Shown here in pieces: positions 4,855 through 42,947 of a DNA stretch of 64,000 nucleotides (its first letter is position 1; each line of letters opens with the position of its first letter). The notes under the pieces are model-generated. The model ran no database searches, was not told where the DNA came from, and was given only the letters and a program-made list of their open reading frames with translations. A program made the position numbers and the translations under genes. The DNA comes from Escherichia phage SME50: sequence record MT887289.1; one strand, written 5' to 3'.

Positions 4855-5158
4855 AATGATTATCTCTTTTAATAGTGCTTTATTAGGCACTTATAAGGTT
4901 AAGACTGAACTCCTTGATGAGTGGAAAAAGTATACAAACTCACTTTTTGGTAATGTTGGAATGGAAGCCTTAGCAGAGATTGAGAAGGCTGGAACATTCG
5001 AAGTTGTTGGTAAAGGCCACTTTACAATGTTCTACAAAACAAATTTAAACGTTGGTGACAGTGTTGTTGGTGTCACTGAAGAAGAACTTAAAACATTTTG
5101 TGAAAAGATTGAGAGAGATATCAAATGGGAATCTGGAACAGTTTTAAATCAAAAGTAA
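4855..5158 (+). CDS. hypothetical protein
   Basis: Track ORF 4700-5158 overlaps nrdG; internal ATG at 4855 preceded by AAGGTGAG is the more plausible start. Confidence 0.45.
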
Positions 5159-5382
5159 AAGCAGCATTGGCATCACTAGGTATGCTCACTGGTGTTGACG
5201 TTACTCATCTCATGCAGAATTTCAAGATGGATGAGAGGCTGGCTAATGAGATTATGAAAAGCATCTATGTAGGTCGTGGAAAAGGTGGTAAAAAACAAGC
5301 ACATCGACCAACTGGTGCAGCAGCAATTAAACGTGCAGCTAAAAAAGCTCGTAACCGTAAACGTAACAAGAAGGCTAAATAA
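5125..5382 (+). CDS. hypothetical protein with highly basic C-terminus
   Basis: 85-aa ORF; C-terminal KRAAKKARNRKRNKKAK tract. Confidence 0.45.
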   Translation: MGIWNSFKSKVKAALASLGMLTGVDVTHLMQNFKMDERLANEIMKSIYVGRGKGGKKQAHRPTGAAAIKRAAKKARNRKRNKKAK

Positions 5383-5384
5383 TC

Positions 5385-5705
5385 ATGAGCAAAGTTTATA
5401 ACACTCGTAAATTACAGATTTTCGTACTGTGCCAGTTTATGGCTAAAGAGTATAACTGCTACTATTGTGGTACAGGGTTCATCAGTGACAATGACGGTTC
5501 ATATCTACCATTCAAAGAGGCTGTAAAACTCTTCAATGAAGAGAAAAGCTCTAAGAAAGATATTGAAAAGGTTAAGCTAACCTACAGCAAGAAAGATAAG
5601 AAGATTATCTGCCTAGATAACTTTGTGAAAGTTACTGGAGAAGCAAAAGAGTTTATGGATGAGAGTGAAATCTCATTCACAAGCATCTTGAAAGTAGCTC
5701 AGTAA
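5385..5705 (+). CDS. hypothetical protein
   Basis: 106-aa ORF starting 3 nt after the previous stop. Confidence 0.5.
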   Translation: MSKVYNTRKLQIFVLCQFMAKEYNCYYCGTGFISDNDGSYLPFKEAVKLFNEEKSSKKDIEKVKLTYSKKDKKIICLDNFVKVTGEAKEFMDESEISFTSILKVAQ

Positions 5706-35526: not shown

Positions 35527-36942
35527 ATGAGCGAATTATTTAAACATGCGCACCTTCATGCAGGTCGAACTGAAAATGGTGCTGTAAACCATACTTCATC
35601 AATGTCTGCTCTGGTAGACTTCTACAAAGCCGCTGGCTCAAGCCGTAGCAATGTAGAAATCTTACCAGACCTGTTCTACAAAGCTTTGCGTGAGGATGTT
35701 GATGTTGCAGTTCGTATTTTACTGCATATGCGAGATGTACGAGAAGGTATGGGTGAGCGTAAAGCTTTCCGAACTGTTTTACTTCAAGCGATTGAAGATA
35801 AGGTTTTAGAACCTACACAGGTTCTTCGCATTATGGATAAGATTGCAGAACTTGGTCGTTTTGATGACTTCAAAATCTTTGTAGGTACTCGTTTTGAGAC
35901 AGATGCCTTCAAACATTTAGAAGCAGCATTACTAGACCCTGCAACAGCAGGTTTAGCGGCTAAGTGGTTACCACGAGTAAAACCACGCCACAAACAGTTT
36001 GTAAAACGTTTCTGTAAGTTTGCAAACTTAAGTGAGAAGGAGTATCGCACACTGTTATCTGCACTGTCCGATACGGTTGAGCAAAAAATCTCTGCTAATG
36101 AGTTTGGTAAGATTGACTACAGCAAGATTCCTTCACTCGCTGCTGCACGTTACCAAAAGCTCTTTAACCGTAAAGATGGTGAACGTTACAAAGCTTATAT
36201 CGAGTCACTCTCAAAGGGTGAGGCTAAGATTAACGCTGGTGCCGTTTACCCATACGATGTGATTAAATCTATCAAGTATGGTAATGCAGGTGTTGCTAAT
36301 GAGCAGTGGAAAGCACTACCAAACTGGATGGCAGAGGGTGAAAACATCTTGTGTATGACTGATGTTTCAAGCTCAATGTCTTGGGTGAATCTTGGTTCAA
36401 TCACTGCCCTTGATATTGGCGTATCACTTGCCTTGTATGTAGCAGAACGCAATACAGGTTGCTTTAAGAATGAGTTAATGGTTTATTCAACAAACCCTCA
36501 CTTCATCGAACTGAGTGGTGATTTGAGAAACCGTCACCGTCAGGTAATGCGTCATGTTGAATATGGTTCAACTAACTTACAAGCAGCTTTTGACCGCATT
36601 CTTGAAATAGGTAAGAGAAACAACTTGACTCAGAAAGATATGCCAAGTAAGCTTATTATCTTCTCTGATATGGAGTTTAATCAGGTTGATGGTGCAAATG
36701 GTCGTACAAACTTTGAAGCAATTCAGAGTAAGTACAAAAAAGCTGGATACGAAATGCCACAACTAGTATTCTGGTACTTAGCAAACCGTAATGGTACTTG
36801 CGAAGTATCTGTTAAAGATAATGGTGTAGCAATGGTATCAGGGTTCTCTCCAGCCACTTTAAAAGCTCTGCTTGGTGGTGAGAAGTTTGACCCAATCAGC
36901 GTAATGCTCAAAGCAGTAATGATTGACCGTTACATCTGGTAA
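35527..36942 (+). CDS. vWA (MIDAS) domain protein with large alpha-helical N-terminal domain; candidate Ro60/TROVE-like RNA-binding protein
   Basis: 471-aa ORF; MIDAS-type motif LCMTDVSSSMSW in the C-terminal third; lies immediately upstream of the tRNA array. Confidence 0.45.
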   Translation: MSELFKHAHLHAGRTENGAVNHTSSMSALVDFYKAAGSSRSNVEILPDLFYKALREDVDVAVRILLHMRDVREGMGERKAFRTVLLQAIEDKVLEPTQVLRIMDKIAELGRFDDFKIFVGTRFETDAFKHLEAALLDPATAGLAAKWLPRVKPRHKQFVKRFCKFANLSEKEYRTLLSALSDTVEQKISANEFGKIDYSKIPSLAAARYQKLFNRKDGERYKAYIESLSKGEAKINAGAVYPYDVIKSIKYGNAGVANEQWKALPNWMAEGENILCMTDVSSSMSWVNLGSITALDIGVSLALYVAERNTGCFKNELMVYSTNPHFIELSGDLRNRHRQVMRHVEYGSTNLQAAFDRILEIGKRNNLTQKDMPSKLIIFSDMEFNQVDGANGRTNFEAIQSKYKKAGYEMPQLVFWYLANRNGTCEVSVKDNGVAMVSGFSPATLKALLGGEKFDPISVMLKAVMIDRYIW

Positions 36943-37107: not shown

Positions 37108-37184
37108 CTCTGTTTAGCTCAGCTTGGTAGAGCGTTCCGTTTGGGGCGGTAAGGCCGGAGGTTCAAGTCCTCCAACAGAGACCA
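37108..37184 (+). tRNA. tRNA-Pro(TGG)
   Basis: Manual fold: acceptor CTCTGTT/AACAGAG, D-arm GCTC...GAGC, anticodon loop TTTGGGG, T-arm GGAGG-TTCAAGT-CCTCC, CCA encoded. Confidence 0.7.
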
Positions 37185-37191
37185 AATTAAT

Positions 37192-37269
37192 GTTCCAGTA
37201 GACAAAACGGTAAAGTCACCACTCTTTCAAAGTGGATATTTGAGGGTTCAAATCCCTTCTGGAACGCCA
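37192..37269 (+). tRNA. tRNA-Glu(TTC)
   Basis: Acceptor GTTCCAG/CTGGAAC, anticodon stem CCACT/AGTGG with loop CTTTCAA, T-loop TTCAAAT, CCA encoded. Confidence 0.7.
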
Positions 37270-37276
37270 GTTTTGA

Positions 37277-37349
37277 CAGAAGACCAATTGCAGCAAACTT
37301 AATCTTATTCATCTGACACGAAATCGGACAAAGAAGATATTTGGTCTGG
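37277..37349 (+). ncRNA. conserved inverted-repeat element A (CAGAAGACCAA ... TTGGTCTGG)
   Basis: 7-bp closing helix; conserved 5' block CAGAAGACCnnnTTGCAGCAAA; immediately follows a tRNA 3' end. Confidence 0.35.
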
Positions 37350-37360
37350 TCATTAAGAAT

Positions 37361-37437
37361 TGCGGGTATAGAGAAAGGGCGTCTCACATGTCTCATTAGC
37401 ATGGTATCGGCAGGTTCGACTCCTGCACCCGCCTCCA
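37361..37437 (+). tRNA. tRNA-Met(CAT), possibly initiator-type
   Basis: Anticodon stem CATGT/GCATG with loop CTCATTA; T-arm GCAGG-TTCGACT-CCTGC; position 1-72 unpaired (T/C); CCA encoded. Confidence 0.6.
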
Positions 37438-37443
37438 ATTTTG

Positions 37444-37503
37444 CAGAAGACCGTATTCAGCAACAAAATACTTTTTGCGGATAAAAGAAAAAACACGGTC
37501 TGG
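37444..37503 (+). ncRNA. conserved inverted-repeat element B (CAGAAGACCGT ... ACGGTCTGG)
   Basis: 7-bp closing helix around an A/T-rich loop; shares the 5' block with elements A, C, D. Confidence 0.35.
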
Positions 37504-37514
37504 CAATGTATTAA

Positions 37515-37591
37515 GGTTAGGAAGCACATAAGGTATGTGCGGTCGCCTGTTAAGCGAATGGCACAGGGTTCGAATCCCTGACTAACCGCAA
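37515..37591 (+). tRNA. tRNA-Asn(GTT)
   Basis: D-arm GCAC...GTGC, anticodon loop CTGTTAA, T-arm CAGGG-TTCGAAT-CCCTG; 3' end reads CAA not CCA. Confidence 0.6.
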
Positions 37592-37600
37592 AATTTAAAT

Positions 37601-37688
37601 GTGTCGTTATCCCGTAGATGGTAGCGGTGGGGACTGTAAATCCCTTGTCATTGAGACTCGGTAGGTTCGACTCCTACACGGCACACCA
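37601..37688 (+). tRNA. tRNA-Tyr(GTA), class II
   Basis: Acceptor GTGTCGT/ACGGCAC, anticodon stem GGGGA/TCCCT with loop CTGTAAA, long variable arm, T-arm GTAGG-TTCGACT-CCTAC, CCA encoded. Confidence 0.7.
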
Positions 37689-37710
37689 ACACTTAGCGAG
37701 ATACTTAGTT

Positions 37711-38139
37711 ATGAGAGATGAAGTATACAAATCACAACTTGGTATGAGTTTAGGAACTGCACAAAACAGACTAGTAAAAGATTTGCTATTTGATTTTATA
37801 TGTAAAACAAATCAAAATAGATGTTTTCAGTGCGGAAAGGAAATGACTAGGGATGATTTCTCTATCGAGCATAAGATTCCGTGGAGACATAGTGAAAATG
37901 CAAAAGAGCTTTTCTTTTCACTAGATAACATTTCTTATAGTCATCTTAAATGCAACATGAAAGCAGCAAGACCAGCACAGATAAGTGAAAGAAAACCTAA
38001 AACAATTAAACACGGAACTGCGTATAGCTATTACAAAGGCTGTAGATGCGATGCGTGTAGGCTGGCTAAGAATGCTGAGAGTAGAAGAAACTATAGTCCA
38101 GAAAGACGTAGGAAGAAGTATATAAGAAATGGTACATAG
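37711..38139 (+). CDS. HNH homing endonuclease inside the tRNA array
   Basis: CFQCGK...EHKIPW...N...H HNH motif; start moved to ATG 37711 because the track ORF start (37618) overlaps tRNA-Tyr. Confidence 0.65.
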   Translation: MRDEVYKSQLGMSLGTAQNRLVKDLLFDFICKTNQNRCFQCGKEMTRDDFSIEHKIPWRHSENAKELFFSLDNISYSHLKCNMKAARPAQISERKPKTIKHGTAYSYYKGCRCDACRLAKNAESRRNYSPERRRKKYIRNGT

Positions 38140-38144
38140 GTTTT

Positions 38145-38220
38145 GGGGTATTAGTTTAGACGGGTAAAATACTGGATTGTCTCTCCTGAGCCGCGAGTTC
38201 GATTCTCGCATACCTCGCCA
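38145..38220 (+). tRNA. tRNA-Asp(GTC)
   Basis: Acceptor GGGGTAT/ATACCTC, anticodon loop TTGTCTC (one stem mismatch), T-arm GCGAG-TTCGATT-CTCGC, CCA encoded. Confidence 0.55.
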
Positions 38221-38281
38221 ATTTTGAGAGGGCTATTTAGCCCCTCCCTTAAAGAGTTCTTACGAGTATTCTTTAAAGGAG

Positions 38282-38355
38282 CAGAAGACCAAATTCAGCA
38301 AGTTACTTAAAATTTCAAGCCAATTTAATTTTGAAAAATTTAAAACTTGGTCTGG
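38282..38355 (+). ncRNA. conserved inverted-repeat element C (CAGAAGACCAA ... TTGGTCTGG)
   Basis: Same family as A/B/D; A/T-rich interior. Confidence 0.35.
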
Positions 38356-38368
38356 CTCAACAAATTTA

Positions 38369-38500
38369 CAGAAGACCGTTTACAGCAAAACTTAAACAAT
38401 CTATTTCTCCGGTAAAGAAAAGGCGAAGGTTCGATTCCTTCACTCGGCAGATGTCGAGTTGGTGTAATGGTAGCACTTAAGATGATAAACAACGGTCTGG
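38369..38500 (+). ncRNA. candidate Y-RNA-like ncRNA: circularly permuted tRNA-like module closed by an 8-bp terminal helix (element D)
   Basis: Order 5'-helix, CTTAA, T-arm GAAGG-TTCGATT-CCTTC, acceptor-3' ACTCGGC, acceptor-5' GTCGAGT, D-arm GTGT-AATGGTA-GCAC, TTAAG, 3'-helix; the two acceptor halves are complementary to each other. Confidence 0.45.
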
Positions 38501-38507
38501 TAATTGT

Positions 38508-38639
38508 CTTTGTAGATAAGTTATTAAGCTTACCTGTGAGTATGCGACCACAAAGGGTGAAAGGGTAAATTCTAGATTTAAACCCAACAAGGCACATCGC
38601 TACAGACCTTAAGCAAGTCTGGGTAGCTTATCTACAAAG
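38508..38639 (+). ncRNA. structured element bounded by a perfect 13-bp inverted repeat (CTTTGTAGATAAG ... CTTATCTACAAAG)
   Basis: 13-bp perfect IR encloses about 105 nt including an internal CAGACC...GTCTGG hairpin; no ORF. Confidence 0.35.
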
Positions 38640-38649
38640 ATAATTTAAT

Positions 38650-38725
38650 GGAAGTGTAGCAGAATGGTGATGCGGCAGACTTTTAATCTGACAGGCGATG
38701 GGTTCGAATCCCTCCACTTCTACCA
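38650..38725 (+). tRNA. tRNA-Lys(TTT)
   Basis: Acceptor GGAAGTG/CACTTCT, anticodon loop CTTTTAA, T-loop TTCGAAT, CCA encoded; T-stem has only 3 clean pairs. Confidence 0.55.
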
Positions 38726-38729
38726 AAAT

Positions 38730-38806
38730 GGTTCAGTCGCAGATAAGGTAATGCAGGGGTTTCATAAGCCCTATGAATGTGGGTTCGATTCCCATCTGAA
38801 CCTCCA
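38730..38806 (+). tRNA. tRNA with CAT anticodon (elongator Met or Ile2)
   Basis: Acceptor GGTTCAG/CTGAACC, anticodon stem GGGGT/GCCCT with loop TTCATAA, T-arm GTGGG-TTCGATT-CCCAT, CCA encoded. Confidence 0.6.
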
Positions 38807-38808
38807 AT

Positions 38809-38884
38809 GCTGTGAAAGCACATATGGATGTGCATTCGGCTGATAACCGAAAGGAAGAAGGTTCGAATCCTTCTCACAGTACCA
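38809..38884 (+). tRNA. tRNA-Ile(GAT)
   Basis: D-arm GCAC...GTGC, anticodon stem TTCGG/CCGAA with loop CTGATAA, T-arm GAAGG-TTCGAAT-CCTTC, CCA encoded. Confidence 0.7.
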
Positions 38885-38899
38885 ATTTCAATAAAGTTG

Positions 38900-38928
38900 T
38901 TGACATTGAGATGTGACCACTTTATAGT
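38900..38928 (+). promoter_or_regulatory. sigma70-like promoter within the tRNA array
   Basis: TTGACA - 17 nt - TATAGT. Confidence 0.55.
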
Positions 38929-39250
38929 AACTAAAATACTTCATAATATGTATAATTCAAACACCAATACATGAGCGTTAGACGTAACACAATGTGGGGA
39001 AATTTGTTGTACATATTCTGAATAGTTTTCGTTGCGTAGCGTCTATTTTGCAAATTTAAAATAAATGCAAACGACAATGTTTTTCTGGCAGTAGCTTGAT
39101 AGGCTAAACACCAGTGAGGTCTTCCAATCCCTCATCAAAGAATTTGGCGTACTCGCCCACGGTATGATTAATAAGGTGGGCAACATTCTAAAGGGTATCC
39201 CTTATGGGGCTTGGCTTAAATGCAATGAGTACCCTTTAAAATGTTAATTA

Positions 39251-39332
39251 CGGGGCGTATCTCAGCGGTCTTCTAAACCGCCGTTAACCGAGTAAGTGGA
39301 GTATGCGGGTTCGAGTCCTGCCGCCTCGACCA
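39251..39332 (+). tRNA. atypical tRNA-like gene (good acceptor/T-arm and a TCT-containing stem-loop, but no recognisable D-arm); isotype uncertain
   Basis: Acceptor CGGGGCG/CGCCTCG, T-arm GCGGG-TTCGAGT-CCTGC, CCA encoded; internal hairpin GCGGT-CTTCTAA-ACCGC. Confidence 0.35.
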
Positions 39333-39346
39333 ATTTTGGATGAAAT

Positions 39347-39695
39347 CATGAAGACTTGTATTAGGTGCAAACTTAGCAAGGATGAAAGTGATTTCTACAT
39401 GAAAGATGGTAGGAGAACTCATTCATACTGTAAAAAGTGTGTTAATGAGCAAACCATAGAAAGACAAAGAGCACTTAAACTTTCAGCTATTGAGTACAAA
39501 GGTGGTGTTTGTCAGGATTGTGGTAAAAGGTATCATCCAGCAGTGTATGACTTCCATCATTTGAATCCTTCAGAGAAAGATTTTAACATTGCTCATAGAA
39601 GAAGTCTTAAGTTCTCTCAGGAGCTTAAGAACGAACTTGACAAATGTGTTTTGCTATGTTCAAATTGCCATAGGGTAAGACATGCAAAGTATTAG
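39347..39695 (+). CDS. HNH endonuclease (zinc-finger plus HNH) inside the tRNA array
   Basis: CIRC...CKKC zinc-finger then HHLNP...CVLLCSNCHRVRH; start moved to ATG 39347 because the track ORF start overlaps the upstream tRNA-like gene. Confidence 0.65.
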
Positions 39696-39832
39696 TTAGC
39701 AGATTGCTTAGACGACCTTATCGGGTCTCCGTGTAAGGAGGTGGTCTGTATCTCATGTTTTCCAGAACATGTAAATAATCTGAGAAGGGGCTTTACAGTG
39801 TTGCGAAAATACGGTAAGCTTCGAATTATAGT

Positions 39833-39915
39833 GTGGGACGATGTTAAGACTCTAAGGCATGAGCAACGGCCTCCAAAACCGTTTCAAAGGGGTTCAACTC
39901 CTCCGTCCCATGCCA
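39833..39915 (+). tRNA. tRNA-Trp(CCA) (D-region longer than canonical)
   Basis: Acceptor GTGGGAC/GTCCCAT, anticodon loop CTCCAAA as in bacterial tRNA-Trp, T-loop TTCAACT, CCA encoded. Confidence 0.45.
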
Positions 39916-39928
39916 AAGTCTTATTAGG

Positions 39929-40016
39929 GGTAGGTAGCGGCTAATGGCAGCCAAACAGTCTTGAAAACTGTTGCCACTGTAGAGATACGGTGAGGGTTCG
40001 ACTCCTTTACTTACCG
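39929..40016 (+). tRNA. tRNA-Ser(TGA), class II
   Basis: Acceptor GGTAGGT/ACTTACC, anticodon stem ACAGT/ACTGT with loop CTTGAAA, long variable arm, T-loop TTCGACT; CCA not fully encoded. Confidence 0.6.
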
Positions 40017-40175
40017 CCTAATAAGATTTTACACCGTCCATGCTTGCTCGCATTTTCGGTTTATCCCTCGTGTATTGTCGTACACACTGATAAAGCACCT
40101 AGTAGGTGTCACGGAGAAGAGATAATATCAAGCTCTCCAAAGGTTCTAGTCACCGGATTAAACAAGACTATGCAA

Positions 40176-40195
40176 AGACCTAAATAGGTCTTTTT
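40176..40195 (+). terminator. rho-independent terminator
   Basis: AGACCT-AAAT-AGGTCT hairpin followed by TTTTT. Confidence 0.5.
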
Positions 40196-40274
40196 AGAGG
40201 GCTTCTAAGGTTATTACAGCTTGTTGTGGAACCTTGTTGCTTAGGTTCTTAGAAGTTCTCTAAAAAGATTTAAT

Positions 40275-40352
40275 GGGAGATTGACGGTAATTGGTAAACC
40301 TACCATCCTTAGAAGTTGGTGTTTGAGGGTTCGAATCCCTTGTCTCCTACCA
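40275..40352 (+). tRNA. tRNA with anticodon TAG (Leu-type anticodon) but short variable arm; identity uncertain
   Basis: Acceptor GGGAGAT/GTCTCCT, anticodon loop CTTAGAA, T-arm GAGGG-TTCGAAT-CCCTT, A73, CCA encoded. Confidence 0.45.
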
Positions 40353-40359
40353 AATTAAT

Positions 40360-40435
40360 GCAGGTGTAGCAAAATGGTTATGCGGCTGACTCTTAATCAG
40401 TAAGACGATGGGTTCAATTCCCTCCACCTGTACCA
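40360..40435 (+). tRNA. tRNA-Lys(CTT)
   Basis: Paralog of the 38650 tRNA: acceptor GCAGGTG/CACCTGT, anticodon stem GCTGA/TCAGT with loop CTCTTAA, T-loop TTCAATT, CCA encoded. Confidence 0.55.
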
Positions 40436-40439
40436 AATT

Positions 40440-40515
40440 GGGGTCATAGTTTATATGGTTAAAATTCGAGTTTTGCAAACTTGGGAACTGAGTTCAATTC
40501 TCAGTGACTCCACCA
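40440..40515 (+). tRNA. tRNA-Ala(TGC)
   Basis: Acceptor GGGGTCA/TGACTCC, anticodon loop TTTGCAA, T-arm CTGAG-TTCAATT-CTCAG, CCA encoded. Confidence 0.65.
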
Positions 40516-40521
40516 ATTAGT

Positions 40522-40596
40522 GCATCCATAGTTTAAACGGGAAAATTACAGTCTTCCAAACTGAGGTTGAGGGTTCGATTCCCTCTGGATGCTCCA
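40522..40596 (+). tRNA. tRNA-Gly(TCC)
   Basis: Acceptor GCATCCA/TGGATGC, anticodon loop CTTCCAA, T-arm GAGGG-TTCGATT-CCCTC, CCA encoded. Confidence 0.65.
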
Positions 40597-40603
40597 AATT
40601 AAT

Positions 40604-40679
40604 GCTCCTATCGTATAATTGGCTATTACGGTTGCCTTGTAAGCAACTTATCAGGGTTCGAATCCTTGTGGGAGCACCA
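40604..40679 (+). tRNA. tRNA-Thr(TGT)
   Basis: Acceptor GCTCCTA/TGGGAGC, anticodon stem GTTGC/GCAAC with loop CTTGTAA, T-arm CAGGG-TTCGAAT-CCTTG, CCA encoded. Confidence 0.7.
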
Positions 40680-40682
40680 ATT

Positions 40683-40770
40683 CAGAGGTCAAGTGAAAGA
40701 CCGCTTTGAGTCAACTGAAGACCGTAACAAATTCCACGGAGTTGAGTTAGCGGCACAACTTCAGACCTCT
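40683..40770 (+). ncRNA. inverted-repeat element E (CAGAGGTC ... GACCTCT) containing a GAAGACC block
   Basis: 7-bp closing helix and internal hairpins; immediately follows tRNA-Thr. Confidence 0.3.
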
Positions 40771-40775
40771 TTCAT

Positions 40776-40850
40776 ACTCGCTTAGTTTATATGGTAAAAC
40801 ACCACCCTTACAAGATGAAGAAAAAGGTTCAAGTCCTTTAGTGAGTACCA
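40776..40850 (+). tRNA. tRNA-Val(TAC) (weak anticodon stem)
   Basis: Acceptor ACTCGCT/AGTGAGT, D-arm GTTT...AAAC, anticodon loop CTTACAA, T-arm AAAGG-TTCAAGT-CCTTT, CCA encoded. Confidence 0.45.
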
Positions 40851-40851
40851 T

Positions 40852-40929
40852 GTTCCAGTATCCCAATTGGCAGAGGATGCAAGCTCAAACCTTGTACTAG
40901 TGACGGTTCGAATCCGTCTTGGAACACCA
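40852..40929 (+). tRNA. tRNA with anticodon CAA (Leu-type anticodon) but short variable arm; identity uncertain
   Basis: Acceptor GTTCCAG/TTGGAAC, anticodon stem GCAAG/CTTGT with loop CTCAAAC, T-arm GACGG-TTCGAAT-CCGTC, A73, CCA encoded. Confidence 0.5.
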
Positions 40930-40934
40930 ATTTT

Positions 40935-41010
40935 GCAGGATTAGTTCAAATGGATAGAGCAACAGTCTACGAAGCTGTTAATAGGGGTTCGAATCCCTTA
41001 TCCTGCGCCA
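40935..41010 (+). tRNA. tRNA-Arg(ACG)
   Basis: Acceptor GCAGGAT/ATCCTGC, D-arm GTTC...GAGC, anticodon stem ACAGT/GCTGT with loop CTACGAA, T-loop TTCGAAT, CCA encoded. Confidence 0.7.
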
Positions 41011-41029
41011 ATTTAAAGAGGCTATTTAG

Positions 41030-41587
41030 ATGAGATATTTGAAGTATGCTTCATGGATTTTCTTAGCTTTGTTAGAACCATTAGCAGCAATCTTAGCAGT
41101 TATCTTAGCACCTTTCGTAGTTCCATTTTACAGTGAGAAGAAAGGACACTTACCTTTCGGATTTAGATGGATGGAAACTTATGACAACCCGATTGATGGT
41201 GATGAAGGTCATGTCAAACGATGGGCTAAGATTAGAAAGATTGGTAAGCTCGGTGTCTATATGCAGAGAGTCGGATGGCTCTGGAGAAACAAAGCTTATA
41301 ACTTCTCCTACCATGTGTTAGGAAGAGATGTAAAAGATGTTACTAAGTGGAAAGGTAATATCAACGTAAGTTCTGACCCTGAAGATAATCAGACAGGTTA
41401 TCTCTTAATGTGGAACAGCAATGCTTGGGGATTATTCGCTTTTGTACCATCAATTAAAATCTTTGGTAAACAATTCTACTGGAGAATTTATGTTGGATGG
41501 AAACTTAAAAGTGTTGTCCCAGAAGAAAGAGCATTCTCAAGGGAAAGAGTTATGTTGGCATTCTTTATTCATCCACTAAGAAAGTAA
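41030..41587 (+). CDS. membrane protein (N-terminal TM helix) embedded in the tRNA array
   Basis: 185-aa ORF; hydrophobic N-terminus WIFLALLEPLAAILAVILAPFVVPF; Trp-rich remainder. Confidence 0.5.
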   Translation: MRYLKYASWIFLALLEPLAAILAVILAPFVVPFYSEKKGHLPFGFRWMETYDNPIDGDEGHVKRWAKIRKIGKLGVYMQRVGWLWRNKAYNFSYHVLGRDVKDVTKWKGNINVSSDPEDNQTGYLLMWNSNAWGLFAFVPSIKIFGKQFYWRIYVGWKLKSVVPEERAFSRERVMLAFFIHPLRK

Positions 41588-41595
41588 AGATTTAA

Positions 41596-41671
41596 AGGGG
41601 ATTAGTTTACAAGGTTAAAACCTCGGTCTTTGAAATCGAAGAAGTTGGTTCAATTCCAACACCCCCCGCCA
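41596..41671 (+). tRNA. tRNA-Gln(TTG)
   Basis: Anticodon stem TCGGT/ATCGA with loop CTTTGAA, T-arm GTTGG-TTCAATT-CCAAC, CCA encoded; acceptor has two mismatches. Confidence 0.5.
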
Positions 41672-41673
41672 AT

Positions 41674-41752
41674 GCTCCATTACTCCAATTGGCAGAGAGG
41701 CCAGACTTAAAATCTGTGTTATGTATCGGTTCGAATCCGATATGGAGTACCA
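41674..41752 (+). tRNA. tRNA with anticodon TAA (Leu-type anticodon) but short variable arm; identity uncertain
   Basis: Acceptor GCTCCAT/ATGGAGT, anticodon loop CTTAAAA, T-arm ATCGG-TTCGAAT-CCGAT, A73, CCA encoded. Confidence 0.5.
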
Positions 41753-41757
41753 AATTT

Positions 41758-41833
41758 AGCGGTATAGCATAACTGGCAATGCAGCAGTCTCTGAAGCTGT
41801 CTTATTAAGGTTCAAATCCTTATGCCGCTGCCA
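41758..41833 (+). tRNA. tRNA-Gln(CTG)
   Basis: Acceptor AGCGGTA/TGCCGCT, D-arm GCAT...ATGC, anticodon loop CTCTGAA, T-arm TAAGG-TTCAAAT-CCTTA, CCA encoded. Confidence 0.6.
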
Positions 41834-41864
41834 CTTCTAAGGATTCTTACGAGAGTCCTTAAAT

Positions 41865-41940
41865 GTGGCCTTATCATAAATGGTAATGACCCATGCTGTG
41901 AACATGGTCTATACGGGTTCAAATCCCGTAGGTCACCCCA
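41865..41940 (+). tRNA. tRNA-His(GTG)
   Basis: Acceptor GTGGCCT/AGGTCAC, D-arm TCAT...ATGA, anticodon stem CCATG/CATGG with loop CTGTGAA, discriminator C, CCA encoded. Confidence 0.7.
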
Positions 41941-41945
41941 ATTTA

Positions 41946-42022
41946 TAGTCCAAGTAGCTTATATGGTTAAAGCGCGTGTCTGAAAAACATGAGAAGAGGG
42001 TTCAAATCCCACTGGACTACCA
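41946..42022 (+). tRNA. tRNA-Phe(GAA)
   Basis: Acceptor TAGTCCA/TGGACTA, D-arm GCTT...AAGC, anticodon stem CGTGT/ACATG with loop CTGAAAA, T-loop TTCAAAT; 3' register ambiguous by 1 nt. Confidence 0.55.
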
Positions 42023-42038
42023 ATTTCAAAGGTGCTTA

Positions 42039-42773
42039 ATGAAAGAGATGACAGAACAAGGTAAGGAGATTTTTAATCTCTTAAAAACTGGTAGAGGGTT
42101 TTCTAATCCCCTTATTACTGGTGCAGCAGTTCTCGGTGGAACCGTAGCTGCCTCTACATCACTTGTAAGCTCTATTAGCTCTGTAACAGACCCTACAATA
42201 AAGGATAAGCTTATTGCTGCTGGACTTACAACAGTTCTGCTTAATAGCTTTACAACGAGTCTGACAAGCACTACATCAACTACTAAGACACTGACAGATT
42301 ACGGTCAAAAGTCCATTGATGAGTTTTCATCACGTATGCAGGTAGCAAAAGGGTATTCCAATGTTATGGGTGCAGCAGGAGAGCAAGTTGGTTGTACACC
42401 ATTTAGTGGTATTATGGGTGTTGCTACAGAGTACGGTCAAAAAGCTATTGACACAATTAACAGTACACTAGACGGTGTTAATGATGTATTAAGTGACTTA
42501 CAAGATGCTATTGACAAAGGTCTTGATACTGTTTCTGATTTAGCTAACCAAGCTGTTAGCAAGATTAATGAAGGTATCTCGAAGATTACAGCTTATGCAG
42601 ATGAAGTTGTGCAGATGATTGAAGAAGAAGCTGCCCTTATTGCAGAGTACCTTAAAACAAATATCAATGGGTTCTTAGCAGGTATCTTACCAGACTGGTT
42701 TGATGATGCTTGTAAAACTGGTGTAATTGATACTATTGCAACACCAGAAATGAAGAACGCATTACAGAAATAA
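42039..42773 (+). CDS. hypothetical Ser/Thr-rich protein upstream of the packaging genes
   Basis: Start moved to ATG 42039 (MKEMTEQ) because the track ORF start (41976) overlaps tRNA-Phe. Confidence 0.45.
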   Translation: MKEMTEQGKEIFNLLKTGRGFSNPLITGAAVLGGTVAASTSLVSSISSVTDPTIKDKLIAAGLTTVLLNSFTTSLTSTTSTTKTLTDYGQKSIDEFSSRMQVAKGYSNVMGAAGEQVGCTPFSGIMGVATEYGQKAIDTINSTLDGVNDVLSDLQDAIDKGLDTVSDLANQAVSKINEGISKITAYADEVVQMIEEEAALIAEYLKTNINGFLAGILPDWFDDACKTGVIDTIATPEMKNALQK

Positions 42774-42774
42774 T

Positions 42775-42867
42775 GGAAGATTAACCCTAAAAGGTAAGGG
42801 AGCAGTTTGCTAAACTGCCAGTAGCTGAGAAATCGGTGTACCAGTTCAAGTCTGGTATCTTCCTCCA
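42775..42867 (+). tRNA. tRNA-Ser(GCT), class II
   Basis: Acceptor GGAAGAT/ATCTTCC, anticodon stem GCAGT/ACTGC with loop TTGCTAA, long variable arm, T-arm ACCAG-TTCAAGT-CTGGT, CCA encoded. Confidence 0.7.
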
Positions 42868-42871
42868 ATTT

Positions 42872-42947
42872 GAATCCGTGACAGAAATGGATATGTGCCT
42901 GTCTGCAAAACAGGTTTATAAGGGTTCGAGTCCCTTCGGATTCTCCA
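42872..42947 (+). tRNA. tRNA-Cys(GCA)
   Basis: Acceptor GAATCCG/CGGATTC, anticodon stem CCTGT/ACAGG with loop CTGCAAA, T-arm AAGGG-TTCGAGT-CCCTT, CCA encoded. Confidence 0.7.

Follow-up and report, generated by a model that had tools for sequence, protein, structure and literature searches.

The DNA analysed here, which we call the window, is the whole stretch of 64,000 nucleotides from Escherichia phage SME50 (MT887289.1). Its sequence identifies it as carrying the tRNA array of a Felixounavirus, a myovirus of E. coli and Salmonella that resembles Felix O1, and the closest database records are those of Felixounaviruses (98%). ARAGORN places 25 tRNA genes on the + strand between positions 37108 and 42947. 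The long variable arm is kept in the two tRNA-Ser (90 and 93 nt) and the tRNA-Tyr (88 nt) of this array, and no class II (long-arm) tRNA-Leu is found among the 25, in agreement with the preliminary description of the locus, which had been made from the letters alone. The unusual members and neighbors of the array considered here are:

38650–38725, + strand: tRNA-Lys(UUU) with a 3-bp T stem and A49.C65 and U50.U64 mismatches (ARAGORN)
39251–39332, + strand: non-canonical tRNA(UCU), probably a tRNA-Arg for AGA/AGG (Rfam tRNA, 31.7 bits; alignments A1 and A3)
39833–39915, + strand: hidden tRNA-Trp(CCA)-like gene, anticodon at 39873–39875 (weak Rfam tRNA-Sec match)
40275–40352, + strand: tRNA-Leu(UAG), class-I shape, 78 nt (ARAGORN; Rfam RF00005, 40.0 bits)
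40360–40435, + strand: tRNA-Lys(CUU) with a 3-bp T stem and A49.C65 and U50.U64 mismatches (ARAGORN)
40852–40929, + strand: tRNA-Leu(CAA), class-I shape, 78 nt (ARAGORN; Rfam RF00005, 43.6 bits)
41674–41752, + strand: tRNA-Leu(UAA), class-I shape, 79 nt (ARAGORN; Rfam RF00005, 47.5 bits)

Single-sequence minimum-free-energy (MFE) folding of these genes was unremarkable (z-scores of -0.2 to -2.0) and recovered the cloverleaves only in part. It supports neither side, and the case for real, selected structures rests on comparative data, in part from six Ounavirinae genomes, namely the window, Si3, SUSP1, Michonne, Shy, and Erwinia phage phiEa21-4. ARAGORN gives the same anticodons as the preliminary description, and it neither folds the Leu genes as class II nor flags a pseudogene; all four structural points made there are borne out by ARAGORN/Rfam and by the comparison with relatives. 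One of them, the short T stem of the two tRNA-Lys genes, is drawn by ARAGORN with three Watson–Crick pairs in each; the mismatches of the gene at 38650–38725 are identical in Michonne, and the Lys tRNAs of phiEa21-4 have normal 5-bp T stems. Trp is the sole amino acid without a tRNA among the 25 ARAGORN calls. The tRNA-Trp-like gene at 39833–39915 has G73 and CCA, with 9 nt rather than 2 between the acceptor and D stems, and its homologue in Michonne differs by five compensatory anticodon-stem pairs and one compensatory D-stem pair.

Bacterial tRNALeu is a class II tRNA in textbook accounts, and tRNA reviews describe it likewise. The three leucine-anticodon genes of the window each have a 7-bp acceptor stem, A73, and an encoded CCA in the ARAGORN drawing, and their anticodons (UAG, CAA, and UAA) are of the NAG/NAA kind that goes with class II leucine tRNAs, but none has a variable arm of at least 10 nt with a stem. 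Their variable regions span 4, 5, and 7 nt (UAG, CAA, and UAA, respectively) as drawn by ARAGORN, or 5–7 nt by standard numbering, versus 12–15 nt in the E. coli leu genes. What they combine is a leucine anticodon, a variable loop of 4–7 nt, and an otherwise complete cloverleaf under selection, i.e., the make-up of a type I tRNALeu; the class-I shape that had been proposed by hand folding is thereby borne out by ARAGORN, Rfam, and the relatives alike. All three exceed the RF00005 gathering score (E of 6e-5 to 5e-7 in the 64-kb window), with scores (40–47.5 bits) that are among the lowest of the array. Leu(CAA) has the D arm UCC-CAAUUGGCAGA-GGA, with a 3-bp stem and an 11-nt loop, and the variable region (A)CUAGU, with U48 as its last nucleotide, while Leu(UAA) has the D arm CUC-CAAUUGGCAGA-GAG and a 7-nt variable region, GUUAUGU, that likewise has U48. 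Leu(UAG) shows G1.U72, a U30.U40 mismatch in the anticodon stem, the variable region UGUUU, and an irregular D region (UGA-CGG-UAAUUGGUAA-ACC(U)) with one extra nucleotide; in its homologues in Si3 and the sequence L013, three anticodon-stem pairs are swapped compensatorily.

Short Leu tRNAs of 77–79 nt are present in all six Ounavirinae genomes, including phiEa21-4. Leu(CAA) is 97–100% identical across Felixounavirus, Suspvirus, and Mooglevirus, and phiEa21-4 has a homologue that has diverged. In an alignment of 17 distinct type I Leu sequences (A4), which left out the irregular ARAGORN ‘tRNA-Leu(taa)’ calls of 78 nt in Mydo-like phages and of 77 nt in L057, 96.2% of the cells are paired and 18 of 20 pairs show double changes. 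None of 500 shuffles matches this, and slid alignments are only 33–47% paired. U8, A14, A15, G18, A20a, A35, A37, and U48 are invariant across the 17 sequences, and G19 and A73 are conserved in at least 90% of them. The D-arm layout equals that of E. coli leuQ/T/U/W/X/Z (a 3-bp stem and N13-A14-A15-Y-Y-G18-G19-N-A-G-A). The published identity set of E. coli LeuRS (PMC9976931, PMC6614811), comprising A73, U8-A14, A15-U48, the G18G19 spacing, A20a, and the T-loop partners, is present in all three genes of the window. The D-loop features are, however, not unique to Leu, since the phage tRNA-Glu also has A15, G18G19, A20a, and U48, but with G73. An attempt to assign the isotype from whole-body identity, with the variable region removed and the anticodon masked, was abandoned: the Leu tRNAs range from 0.63 to 0.74 against a sample of E. 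coli K-12 tRNAs, with tRNALeu not among the best, such that overall similarity is uninformative on isotype.

The gene at 39251–39332 can be divided as follows, all on the + strand:

39251–39257 and 39322–39328: acceptor stem, 7 bp
39258–39264: connector UAUCUCA
39261–39263: CUC, 5' strand of a proposed long-range D stem, which would pair with GAG at 39290–39292 around the anticodon arm
39265–39281: anticodon arm with a 5-bp stem and the loop CUUCUAA, anticodon at 39272–39274
39282–39289: linker
39290–39300: GAGUAAGUGGA, made up of GAGU (39290–39293) and AAGUGGA (39294–39300)
39301–39304: GUAU
39305–39321: T arm with a 5-bp T stem
39329: A73
39330–39332: CCA

Its score of 31.7 bits compares with an RF00005 gathering threshold of 29. 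The molecule is not reduced in size, with 79 nt before the CCA and 23 nt between the anticodon arm and the T stem. It belongs to a family with representatives in 262 phage records and about 60 IMG/VR contigs, spread over unrelated phage groups; among 185,579 prokaryotic species genomes, the sole occurrence is one contig, a MAG. ARAGORN makes no call for the members in the window, 121Q, Mydo, or PD06; the sole member that it draws, L058, appears as a 96-nt tRNA-Arg. The GenBank label of the 121Q copy, ‘tRNA-Leu(taa)’, is supported by no fold. Across 39–46 distinct sequences (A1 and A3), 99% of the cells are paired and 14–17 of 20 pairs are compensated, a result reached by none of 500 shuffles, and RNAalifold independently recovers the acceptor, anticodon, and T stems. 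The anticodon loop CUUCUAA/C is conserved, as are U33, a purine at position 37, and the canonical T loop, and 43 of the 46 members have a UCU or CCU anticodon; the others are an Arg(ACG), one more CCU, and an Ile(GAU). The anticodon arm covaries, the discriminator may be A, G, U, or C, and G.U occurs at 3:70 in 7 of 39 members, the window copy having G3.U70 together with A73.

In every one of 46 members, a local D stem-loop is absent, with only the seven nucleotides UAUCUCA lying between the acceptor and anticodon stems. This connector is invariant at 48 of 48 loci found with a search pattern that did not impose it, and the core YCGAGUAANNGGA on the other side of the anticodon arm is kept in 42 of the 46 A3 sequences. 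The GAG triple changes compensatorily in three of four divergent members (CGG/CCG, CCC/GGG, and GCC/AGC, the last forming two pairs and a C.A mismatch), a support for the 3-bp long-range helix that is limited to three divergent sequences, within an alignment built to fit the model. The proposed CUC:GAG D stem of 39251–39332 is moderately supported by the comparative evidence. The preliminary description had recorded a gene without a D arm. A local D hairpin is indeed missing, yet the comparison across the family points to pairing of the 5' connector with the 3' segment as a D stem, for which ‘re-threaded’ fits better than ‘D-armless’. The segment GAGUAAGUGGA appears to read like canonical G10-U13, A14, A15, N16, Y17, G18, G19, and A20, as though the 5' strand and loop of the D arm had been relocated downstream of the anticodon arm.

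The members of the family lie in tRNA clusters, usually without a canonical tRNA-Arg(UCU) nearby. None of the six Ounavirinae genomes carries both alleles of tRNA-Arg(UCU), canonical and re-threaded, at the locus, a count limited to these inspected genomes because divergent canonical alleles and generic tRNA-Arg matches swamp the blastn count across Felixounaviruses. AGA and AGG make up 55% of the phage Arg codons, versus less than 2% in the E. coli sample, with AGA alone reaching 43.5%. The identity set of E. coli ArgRS reportedly consists, from McClain- and Tamura-era work, of C35, U36/G36, A20, and A/G73. The UCU anticodon supplies C35 and U36, most members have A/G73, and the GG of the displaced segment is followed by an A at the place where A20 would be expected. 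In the surroundings of the gene, we also observed a widespread tmRNA-tag-like element 150 nt upstream and an HNH ORF on its 3' side. A comparison by tblastn led us to reject the HNH gene as an obligatory partner, as it adjoins few members only.

Taken together, we consider it probable that the short-arm Leu tRNAs are host-charged and that 39251–39332 is a member of a re-threaded tRNA-Arg family. The Leu genes are most likely real leucine tRNAs that would be charged by the host LeuRS and serve a phage rich in UUA/UUG/CUN codons, and we infer both their charging and their use in translation. They would retain the positions that LeuRS reads (A73, U8-A14, the A15-U48 Levitt pair, the G18G19 spacing, A20a, and the canonical T loop), and the missing long variable arm would be one that E. 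coli LeuRS does not need. The UAA and CAA anticodons would decode UUA/UUG and UAG would decode CUN, codons that are far commoner in the phage than in the host: TTA, CTT, CTA, TTG, and CTG account for 29%, 27%, 12%, 12%, and 14% of the phage Leu codons, respectively, while CTG accounts for 65% in the E. coli sample. For E. coli LeuRS, the essentials are A73, A15-U48, G18G19, and A20a, and variants without the long arm are still active (PMC9976931). The enzyme did not charge the natural Streptomyces type I tRNALeu(CAA) (Fan et al., 2019; PMC6614811), which indicates that a short arm can matter, though that tRNA has C48 and those of the phage have U48. As for the phage UCU/CCU family, we propose that the D-arm segment 10–21 has been transferred to a place 3' of the anticodon arm. 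The strand that is normally positions 22–26 would be provided by the 5' connector (U8 A9 U-CUC-A), the displaced GAGU-AANYGGA would provide positions 10–20, including A14, A15, G18G19, and the ArgRS determinant A20, and the last nucleotide 5' of the T stem would be U48. With the CUC:GAG helix stacked on the anticodon stem, a canonical L-shaped core would arise by another chain path; this three-dimensional mimicry, like arginylation, is part of the proposal. In this phage, the gene takes the place of the canonical tRNA-Arg(UCU) of relatives and would be the sole phage-encoded reader of AGA.

These readings have to be weighed against several others. That the Leu-anticodon genes insert another amino acid at Leu codons, or are silent pseudogenes, we regard as very improbable. 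There is precedent for such cases (PMC8450103), CAA is one base away from the CAU of Met, E. coli tRNA-Met and tRNA-Arg outrank tRNALeu in whole-body identity, and the RefSeq record of Si3 marks the Leu(UAG) homologue ‘tRNA-OTHER’ (pseudo). However, tRNAs with four different Leu anticodons (CAA, UAA, UAG, and AAG) from diverged genera have in common the D-arm layout, U48, and A73, and the strong compensatory evolution of the set speaks against pseudogenes. An origin by anticodon shift is disfavored within the array, where Leu(CAA) and Leu(UAA) are mutual nearest relatives (0.73 identity) and no other isotype exceeds 0.68 identity to the Leu genes. Further, G3:U70, the alanine identity element, is absent from all three genes, and as the synthetases for the other A73 isotypes read the anticodon (identity rules, PMC9976931), Leu anticodons would block mischarging. 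For 39251–39332, a role outside translation – as a decoy, a tmRNA-like acceptor domain, a processing signal, or cargo of the HNH homing endonuclease – appears distinctly unlikely. The want of an ARAGORN call, the alanine- and tmRNA-like G3.U70 and A73 of the window copy, the upstream tag-like element, and the HNH ORF that follows would all suit it. Yet G3.U70 is a minority state, the HNH gene accompanies few members, and the tag-like element also precedes the canonical tRNA-Arg of relatives and is present in phages that lack such a tRNA; the tmRNA-like reading, in which the acceptor domain would be paired with that element, was rejected on the first and last of these grounds. A tmRNA tRNA-like domain would, moreover, have no anticodon arm and a conserved G3:U70 with A73, unlike the covarying anticodon arm and variable discriminator of the family. 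The conserved anticodon loop, U33, purine 37, T loop, and UCU/CCU anticodons also speak against it, as does the alternation with a canonical tRNA-Arg(UCU) at one locus in a phage whose main Arg codon is AGA.

We also consider it doubtful that the family truly lacks any D stem and instead forms a local 3-bp hairpin, YCG-AGUAAN-YGG, with a single-stranded connector, in the manner of mitochondrial D-armless tRNAs. This hairpin, which would compete with CUC:GAG, is the form preferred by RNAalifold and is also predicted by single-sequence MFE folding, and its three pairs show only pairing-compatible changes (C-G to U.G and G.U to G-C). These changes are, however, all one-sided pyrimidine transitions with zero double compensation, whereas CUC:GAG is compensated as CGG:CCG and CCC:GGG in other members. 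Moreover, the hairpin is impossible in L048 2689–2763 (UCA-GAG-UAAUUGGA), which keeps CUC:GAG, and it would sequester the GG that matches G18G19. A further alternative, that the altered shapes of the Leu, Arg, and Lys tRNAs were selected mainly to hide from tRNA-targeting host defences and toxins or from phage-induced attack, with synthetase recognition kept and codon supply secondary, seems unlikely. The changes do lie outside what the synthetases need, and the re-threaded family is confined to phages yet spread over unrelated groups. Phage tRNAs are reported, in work on T5, to escape anticodon nucleases through sequence changes. A long variable loop is a reported selectivity element of at least one tRNA-targeting toxin, MenT3, which acts on tRNASer. 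Against this, codon usage alone accounts for the need for these tRNAs, T5 and phi92-like coliphages retain class II Leu tRNAs, and our analysis identified no system that cleaves E. coli tRNALeu or recognizes the D arm of tRNAArg(UCU).

Our search of the literature for natural bacterial type I tRNALeu returned one Streptomyces tRNA only. This type I tRNALeu(CAA) of Streptomyces coelicolor (PMC6614811) is likewise natural and non-mitochondrial, with a 5-nt variable loop. It has C48 and works beside class II tRNALeu with a single LeuRS that does not use A73, whereas the phage Leu isoacceptors are all type I, virus-encoded, and keep A15-U48 and A73. Long-arm-less variants of E. coli tRNALeu have been engineered or selected (Asahara 1998, Tocchini-Valentini 2000, and Larkin 2002, as reviewed in PMC9976931), and there A73, A15-U48, G18G19, A20a, and the D/T-loop tertiary pairs are described as sufficient, a set also seen in the phage genes. 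Those are E. coli-derived laboratory molecules, whereas the phage genes are natural and diverged, at most about 0.7 identical to any sampled E. coli tRNA.

Animal mitochondria offer parallels to both kinds of phage tRNA, with type I tRNALeu that have a short variable region and tRNASer(AGY/UCU) that lack a local D hairpin and serve AGN codons (PMC9976931, PMC7609411). The mitochondrial molecules are, however, shrunken and rich in A/U, their T arms are often degenerate, and dedicated mitochondrial enzymes handle them, in contrast to the 7/5/5-bp stems, GTTCGANTC T loop, G18G19-like residues, and long conserved replacement segment of the phage tRNAs, which must use bacterial cytosolic enzymes. 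In the red alga Cyanidioschyzon merolae, whole tRNA genes are circularly permuted, with processing and ligation re-establishing the canonical chain. There too, the order of segments in the gene is non-canonical; in the phage family, however, the acceptor ends are in their normal place and only segment 10–21 appears displaced, such that the re-threading would persist in the mature chain. Phage T5 is alike in its large tRNA array with interspersed HNH endonuclease genes and ‘tRNA-like stable RNAs of unknown function’, but its tRNA-Leu(UAG) is class II (85 nt), its tRNA-Arg is canonical, and a covariance model search of its tRNA region found no member of the re-threaded family.

A broader proposition, to which we would give only a modest chance, is that the phage tRNAs with rebuilt cores (the Leu long arm deleted, the Arg D arm re-threaded, and the Lys T stem weakened) are still substrates of the host synthetases, EF-Tu, and the ribosome, while going unseen by host or phage factors that read tRNA shape, among them defence nucleases, toxins of the nucleotidyltransferase kind, and certain modification enzymes. 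If true, immune evasion by phage tRNAs would be structural and not confined to the anticodon loop, and with the re-threaded D arm, an alternative chain topology would be known for the first time in an elongator tRNA of the cytosolic type. More immediately, a coliphage subfamily with short-arm Leu tRNAs only constitutes a natural test of the proposition that E. coli LeuRS ignores the long arm. Of the two findings, the re-threaded tRNA(UCU) family matters more. In hundreds of phage genomes, a probable tRNA-Arg is overlooked by standard pipelines or labeled ‘tRNA-OTHER’, with its layout almost never annotated, and the family is of relevance to phage annotation, tRNA evolution, and the design of orthogonal tRNAs. 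If the re-threaded tRNA works in translation, the L-shaped core of a tRNA could be built along another route of the chain and would be accepted at each step, from RNase P and CCA handling to ArgRS, EF-Tu, and the ribosome.

The leucine tRNAs of the SME50 array lie in a region that is widely shared: a megablast search with 39900-42100 matched 312 phage records, with Escherichia phages KEP3 and vB_EcoM_Shy at the top (98% identity) and nearly all the remainder belonging to Felixounavirus or to related Ounavirinae, with Escherichia, Salmonella, Shigella and Citrobacter as hosts. ARAGORN places 25 tRNAs in the array, all on one strand, and the array is broken up by two HNH ORFs, as is also seen in the tRNA region of T5, and by one DUF7338 ORF.

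Features of the tRNA region
35527-36942: ORF directly 5' of the array, matching DUF2828, DUF7788 and, weakly, a vWA domain
37108-42947, + strand: phage tRNA array
37714-38139: small HNH endonuclease ORF (Pfam, 21.5 bits)
about 39030-39190: conserved non-coding element of ~170 nt, with a tag frame at 39067-39099
39251-39332: non-canonical tRNA(UCU)
39349-39695: small HNH endonuclease ORF (Pfam, 18.6 bits)
39833-39915: tRNA-Trp(CCA)-like gene, not called by ARAGORN
40275-40352: tRNA-Leu(UAG)
40852-40929: tRNA-Leu(CAA)
41674-41752: tRNA-Leu(UAA)
near 37275, 37445, 38285, 38370 and 40700: spacer sites listed with the tRNA remnant at 38400-38490

A preliminary description, folded by hand, had reported three genes with leucine anticodons and short variable regions, the absence of any class II tRNA-Leu, a gene at 39251-39332 lacking the D arm, and weakened T stems in both tRNA-Lys. 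Since ARAGORN, Rfam and sequence checks reproduce each of these points, that account is correct throughout and a hand-folding artefact is excluded. ARAGORN calls the three leucine genes as tRNAs of 78, 78 and 79 nt, including the encoded CCA, each with a 7-bp acceptor stem, A73, a 5-bp T stem, a TTCGAAT loop and a variable region of 4-7 nt. All three exceed the threshold of the Rfam tRNA model (40.0-47.5 bits), with the lowest scores among the regular tRNAs. None of the 25 called tRNAs is a class II tRNA-Leu; both serine tRNAs and the tyrosine tRNA retain long arms. The two lysine tRNAs each carry A49.C65 and U50.U64 mismatches.

The short arm recurs in related phages. In the homologous arrays of Si3, phiSUSP1 (Suspvirus), Michonne (Mooglevirus), Shy and Erwinia phage phiEa21-4 (Kolesnikvirus), ARAGORN finds only leucine tRNAs of 77-79 nt, with the anticodons UAG, CAA and UAA and, in phiEa21-4, additionally AAG. 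Three unrelated IMG/VR contigs (L026, L048 and L063) hold further short examples with the same D-arm signature. Across the compared phage loci, 22 distinct leucine tRNAs are short and 18 long, the long-arm form occurring in T5 and phi92-like phages. In an alignment of 17 distinct short sequences, 96.2% of stem cells are paired and 18 of 20 pairs have changed on both sides, a level of covariation reached by none of 500 shuffles; slid controls were only 33-47% paired. The Si3 Leu(UAG) differs from the window copy in three anticodon-stem pairs, among them the window's U.U mismatch, and all three are Watson-Crick in Si3. These sequence comparisons indicate that the genes are not decaying pseudogenes and are under structural selection.

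The paralogous short leucine tRNAs are also still recombining with each other. The 'tRNA-Leu(UAA)' of Si3 (5124-5202 of its locus) is a chimera of a 5' part from Leu(CAA) and a 3' part from Leu(UAA), the genes formerly between them having been deleted, and the Leu(UAA) of Shy (5323-5399 of its locus) has lost 2 nt of its D arm.

As for leucine identity, the five leucine isoacceptors of E. coli K-12 served as the reference. In these, U8-G9 is followed by a D stem of 3 bp with the loop R-A-A-U-Y-G-G-U-A-G-A. In the phage Leu(CAA) and Leu(UAA), U8-A9 precedes a D stem of equal length with the loop C-A-A-U-U-G-G-C-A-G-A, so that the D-arm register is the same; the D arm of Leu(UAG) is similar, with one nucleotide extra. 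Of the bacterial synthetases, AlaRS reads G3:U70, SerRS reads the long arm, and the other A73 isotypes are read via the anticodon; the phage leucine tRNAs have neither G3:U70 nor a long arm, which by these established rules excludes the other anticodon-blind synthetases. Among the 17 short sequences, U8, A14, A15, G18, the A two positions past G19, and U48 are invariant, and conservation reaches at least 90% at G19 and A73. Isotype cannot be read from the overall similarity to E. coli tRNAs; within the array, Leu(CAA) and Leu(UAA) resemble one another most closely (0.73 identity), no other tRNA exceeds 0.68 identity to the short leucine tRNAs, and the phage tRNA-Glu has several D-loop features in common with them. 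The first acceptor pair is G1-C72 in E. coli tRNALeu but mostly G1.U72 in the short phage tRNAs (11 of 16, alignment columns 1 and 77), including Leu(UAG) and Leu(UAA) of the window. In E. coli, tRNALeu identity depends on A73, A15-U48, G18G19 and A20a and requires neither the long arm nor the anticodon, and arm-less variants remain active (PMC9976931, a 2023 review); A14 is also counted among the identity elements (PMC6614811). The type I tRNALeu(CAA) of Streptomyces is not charged by E. coli LeuRS (PMC6614811), and it has C at position 48, where the phage tRNAs have U. The phage genes are consistent with the known rules of E. coli LeuRS, and would constitute a naturally occurring, conserved example of short-arm tRNALeu among enterobacterial phages.

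Several other unusual elements accompany these genes. The tRNA-Trp(CCA)-like gene has a normal acceptor stem, a 1-72 pair of G.U or A-U, G73, CCA and a D arm, with 9 nt (GAUGUUAAG) between the acceptor and D stems versus the usual 2, an A49.C65 mismatch in the T arm and a closing C31.A39 mismatch. Its Michonne copy shows five compensatory anticodon-stem pairs and one compensated D-stem pair. Tryptophan is the sole amino acid unrepresented among the called tRNAs, a gap that this putative gene would fill. At 38400-38490 lies a permuted or rearranged tRNA remnant: a T arm and 3' acceptor strand (GCGAAGGTTCGATTCCTTC-ACTCGGC-A) come first, and 3 nt further on stand a 5' acceptor strand complementary to the 3' strand and a D arm (GTCGAGT-TG-GTGTAATGGTAGCAC). 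AGACC...GGTCT inverted repeats flank it and recur in several array spacers. The ORF 5' of the array, annotated as 'RNA-binding protein' in relatives, possibly encodes a Ro60/TROVE-like product, which would be of interest beside a cluster of odd tRNA-like RNAs.

The conserved non-coding element resembles the tag region of tmRNA. At its core an invariant AUAAAU leads into a frame of 10 codons, which in the window reads ANDNVFLAVA*; the stop codon lies within a hairpin, the arrangement of tmRNA helix 5. Copies were found in 117 IMG/VR stretches as well as in lambdoid, T1-like, Vi01-like, Ounavirinae, Klebsiella and Erwinia phages, the one in lambdoid HK633 lying between Q/PR' and the holin gene. 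The peptides fall into 12 variants, all AN[DE]xx[FY]LAVA, encoded by many synonymous DNA variants, and only 1 of 126 frames is shifted. Rfam matches to permuted and beta-proteobacterial tmRNA models are weak, and no tRNA-like domain was found beside the element. In Salmonella phage PhiSH19, ~190 nt downstream of it, GGGTTCGACTCCC-TAAAA-CGGCTCCAC (1730-1765 of the locus) looks like a tmRNA T arm and 3' end (GGGUUCAACUCCCGCCAGCUCCACCA); a search for a matching 5' acceptor strand found none, and a second orphan T-arm-like motif follows at 1800-1830. Mycobacteriophages and Bacillus phage G are the only phages with ssrA in a 2014 tmRNA census (PMC4131195).

The gene at 39251-39332, uncalled by ARAGORN and scoring 31.7 bits with the Rfam tRNA model, has acceptor, anticodon and T stems, with 7 nt replacing the D arm and 23 nt preceding the T stem. 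At the same position Shy, SUSP1, Michonne and phiEa21-4 carry a canonical tRNA-Arg(UCU) of 76-77 nt, which is absent from the window and Si3, where the odd gene occupies the locus. By blastn, 262 phage records contain a member of its family: some of the Felixounavirus phages, the T5-like Klebsiella phage Sugarland, the jumbo phages 121Q, PHA46, A4 and fENko-Kae01, phi92-like Justusliebigvirus, Mydovirus-like phages, and Serratia and Streptomyces phages. Pattern scans added about 60 IMG/VR contigs and, with one genome per species, a single prokaryotic MAG contig. Annotation is almost always lacking ('tRNA-OTHER' twice, 'tRNA-Leu(taa)' once), and the literature searched, of limited coverage, yielded no description of this family or of short-arm phage leucine tRNAs. 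In 39 distinct members the three stems are entirely different in sequence, yet 99.2% of cells are paired; 14 of 20 pairs are compensated (207 cells), which 0 of 500 shuffles equalled, and RNAalifold also recovers the stems. The sequence between the stems is nearly frozen: UAUCUCA directly follows the acceptor stem in 48 of 48 loci, though the search pattern did not impose it, the anticodon loop is CUUCUAA/C (once UUCCUAA), and the 3' segment reads C[G/A]UUAA-YCGAGUAANYGGA-GUAU or AG-YCGAGUAARYGGA-UCAAU. The adjoining HNH ORF was considered as a constant partner and rejected: 96% copies directly after the tRNA occur in only two further loci (L012, L041), other loci having just weaker HNH matches located elsewhere.

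This widespread and essentially unannotated family has apparently re-threaded its D arm. By sequence, the frozen GAGU-AANYGGA would match canonical G10 N N N A14 R15 N16 Y17 G18 G19 A20, the connector U-A-U-CUC-A would match U8, A9, strand 22-25 and position 26, and the U that always precedes the T stem matches U48. Pairing of CUC with GAG around the anticodon arm would lengthen that arm by three pairs, like a normal D stem. Four divergent members located with a covariance model of the family bear on this helix: L064 (CCU) has UAC-CGG-C and CCG-U-AAAUGGA; L063 (1078-1153, GAU) UAU-CCC-C with GGG-U-AGUCGGU; L048 (2689-2763, ACG) CUC with UCA-GAG-U-AAUUGGA, where a competing mini-hairpin is impossible; and L053 (UCU) GCC with AGC, giving two pairs and a C.A. 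The layout thus extends beyond UCU/CCU to one Ile (GAU) and one Arg (ACG) anticodon, both in IMG/VR contigs. In a 46-sequence alignment all three pairs show double changes and 99.3% of cells pair; as this alignment was fitted to the long-range model and independent events are few, the helix appears moderately supported. The three new chain junctions (9 to 22, 43-45 to 10, and 21 to 46-48) would join residues that, judging from established tRNA structure, the known interactions 9-12-23, 10-25-45/26-44 and 8-14-21/13-22-46 bring side by side in the canonical L shape. Within the D loop, E. coli ArgRS depends chiefly on A20, whose place would be taken by the A after GG in the displaced segment.

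Sixty-nine long ORFs from the window, with 16,043 codons in total, were compared in codon usage with a sample of 20 E. coli genes. Phage leucine codons are TTA 29%, CTT 27%, CTG 14%, TTG 12%, CTA 12% and CTC 7%, with CTG at 65% in the E. coli sample; among arginine codons AGA makes up 43.5% and AGG 11.5%, each below 1% in that sample. The phage leucine anticodons therefore match over-used codons, and a reader of AGA is badly needed. Members of the re-threaded family sit in tRNA clusters with as many as 28 genes, usually with no canonical tRNA-Arg(UCU) nearby, and alternate with the canonical allele in Ounavirinae; their anticodon and T loops are canonical, and their 3' ends, CCA or CCA-less, follow the adjoining tRNAs. 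Together with the heavy use of AGA, these features lead us to favor a putative working AGR-decoding tRNA over a decoy.
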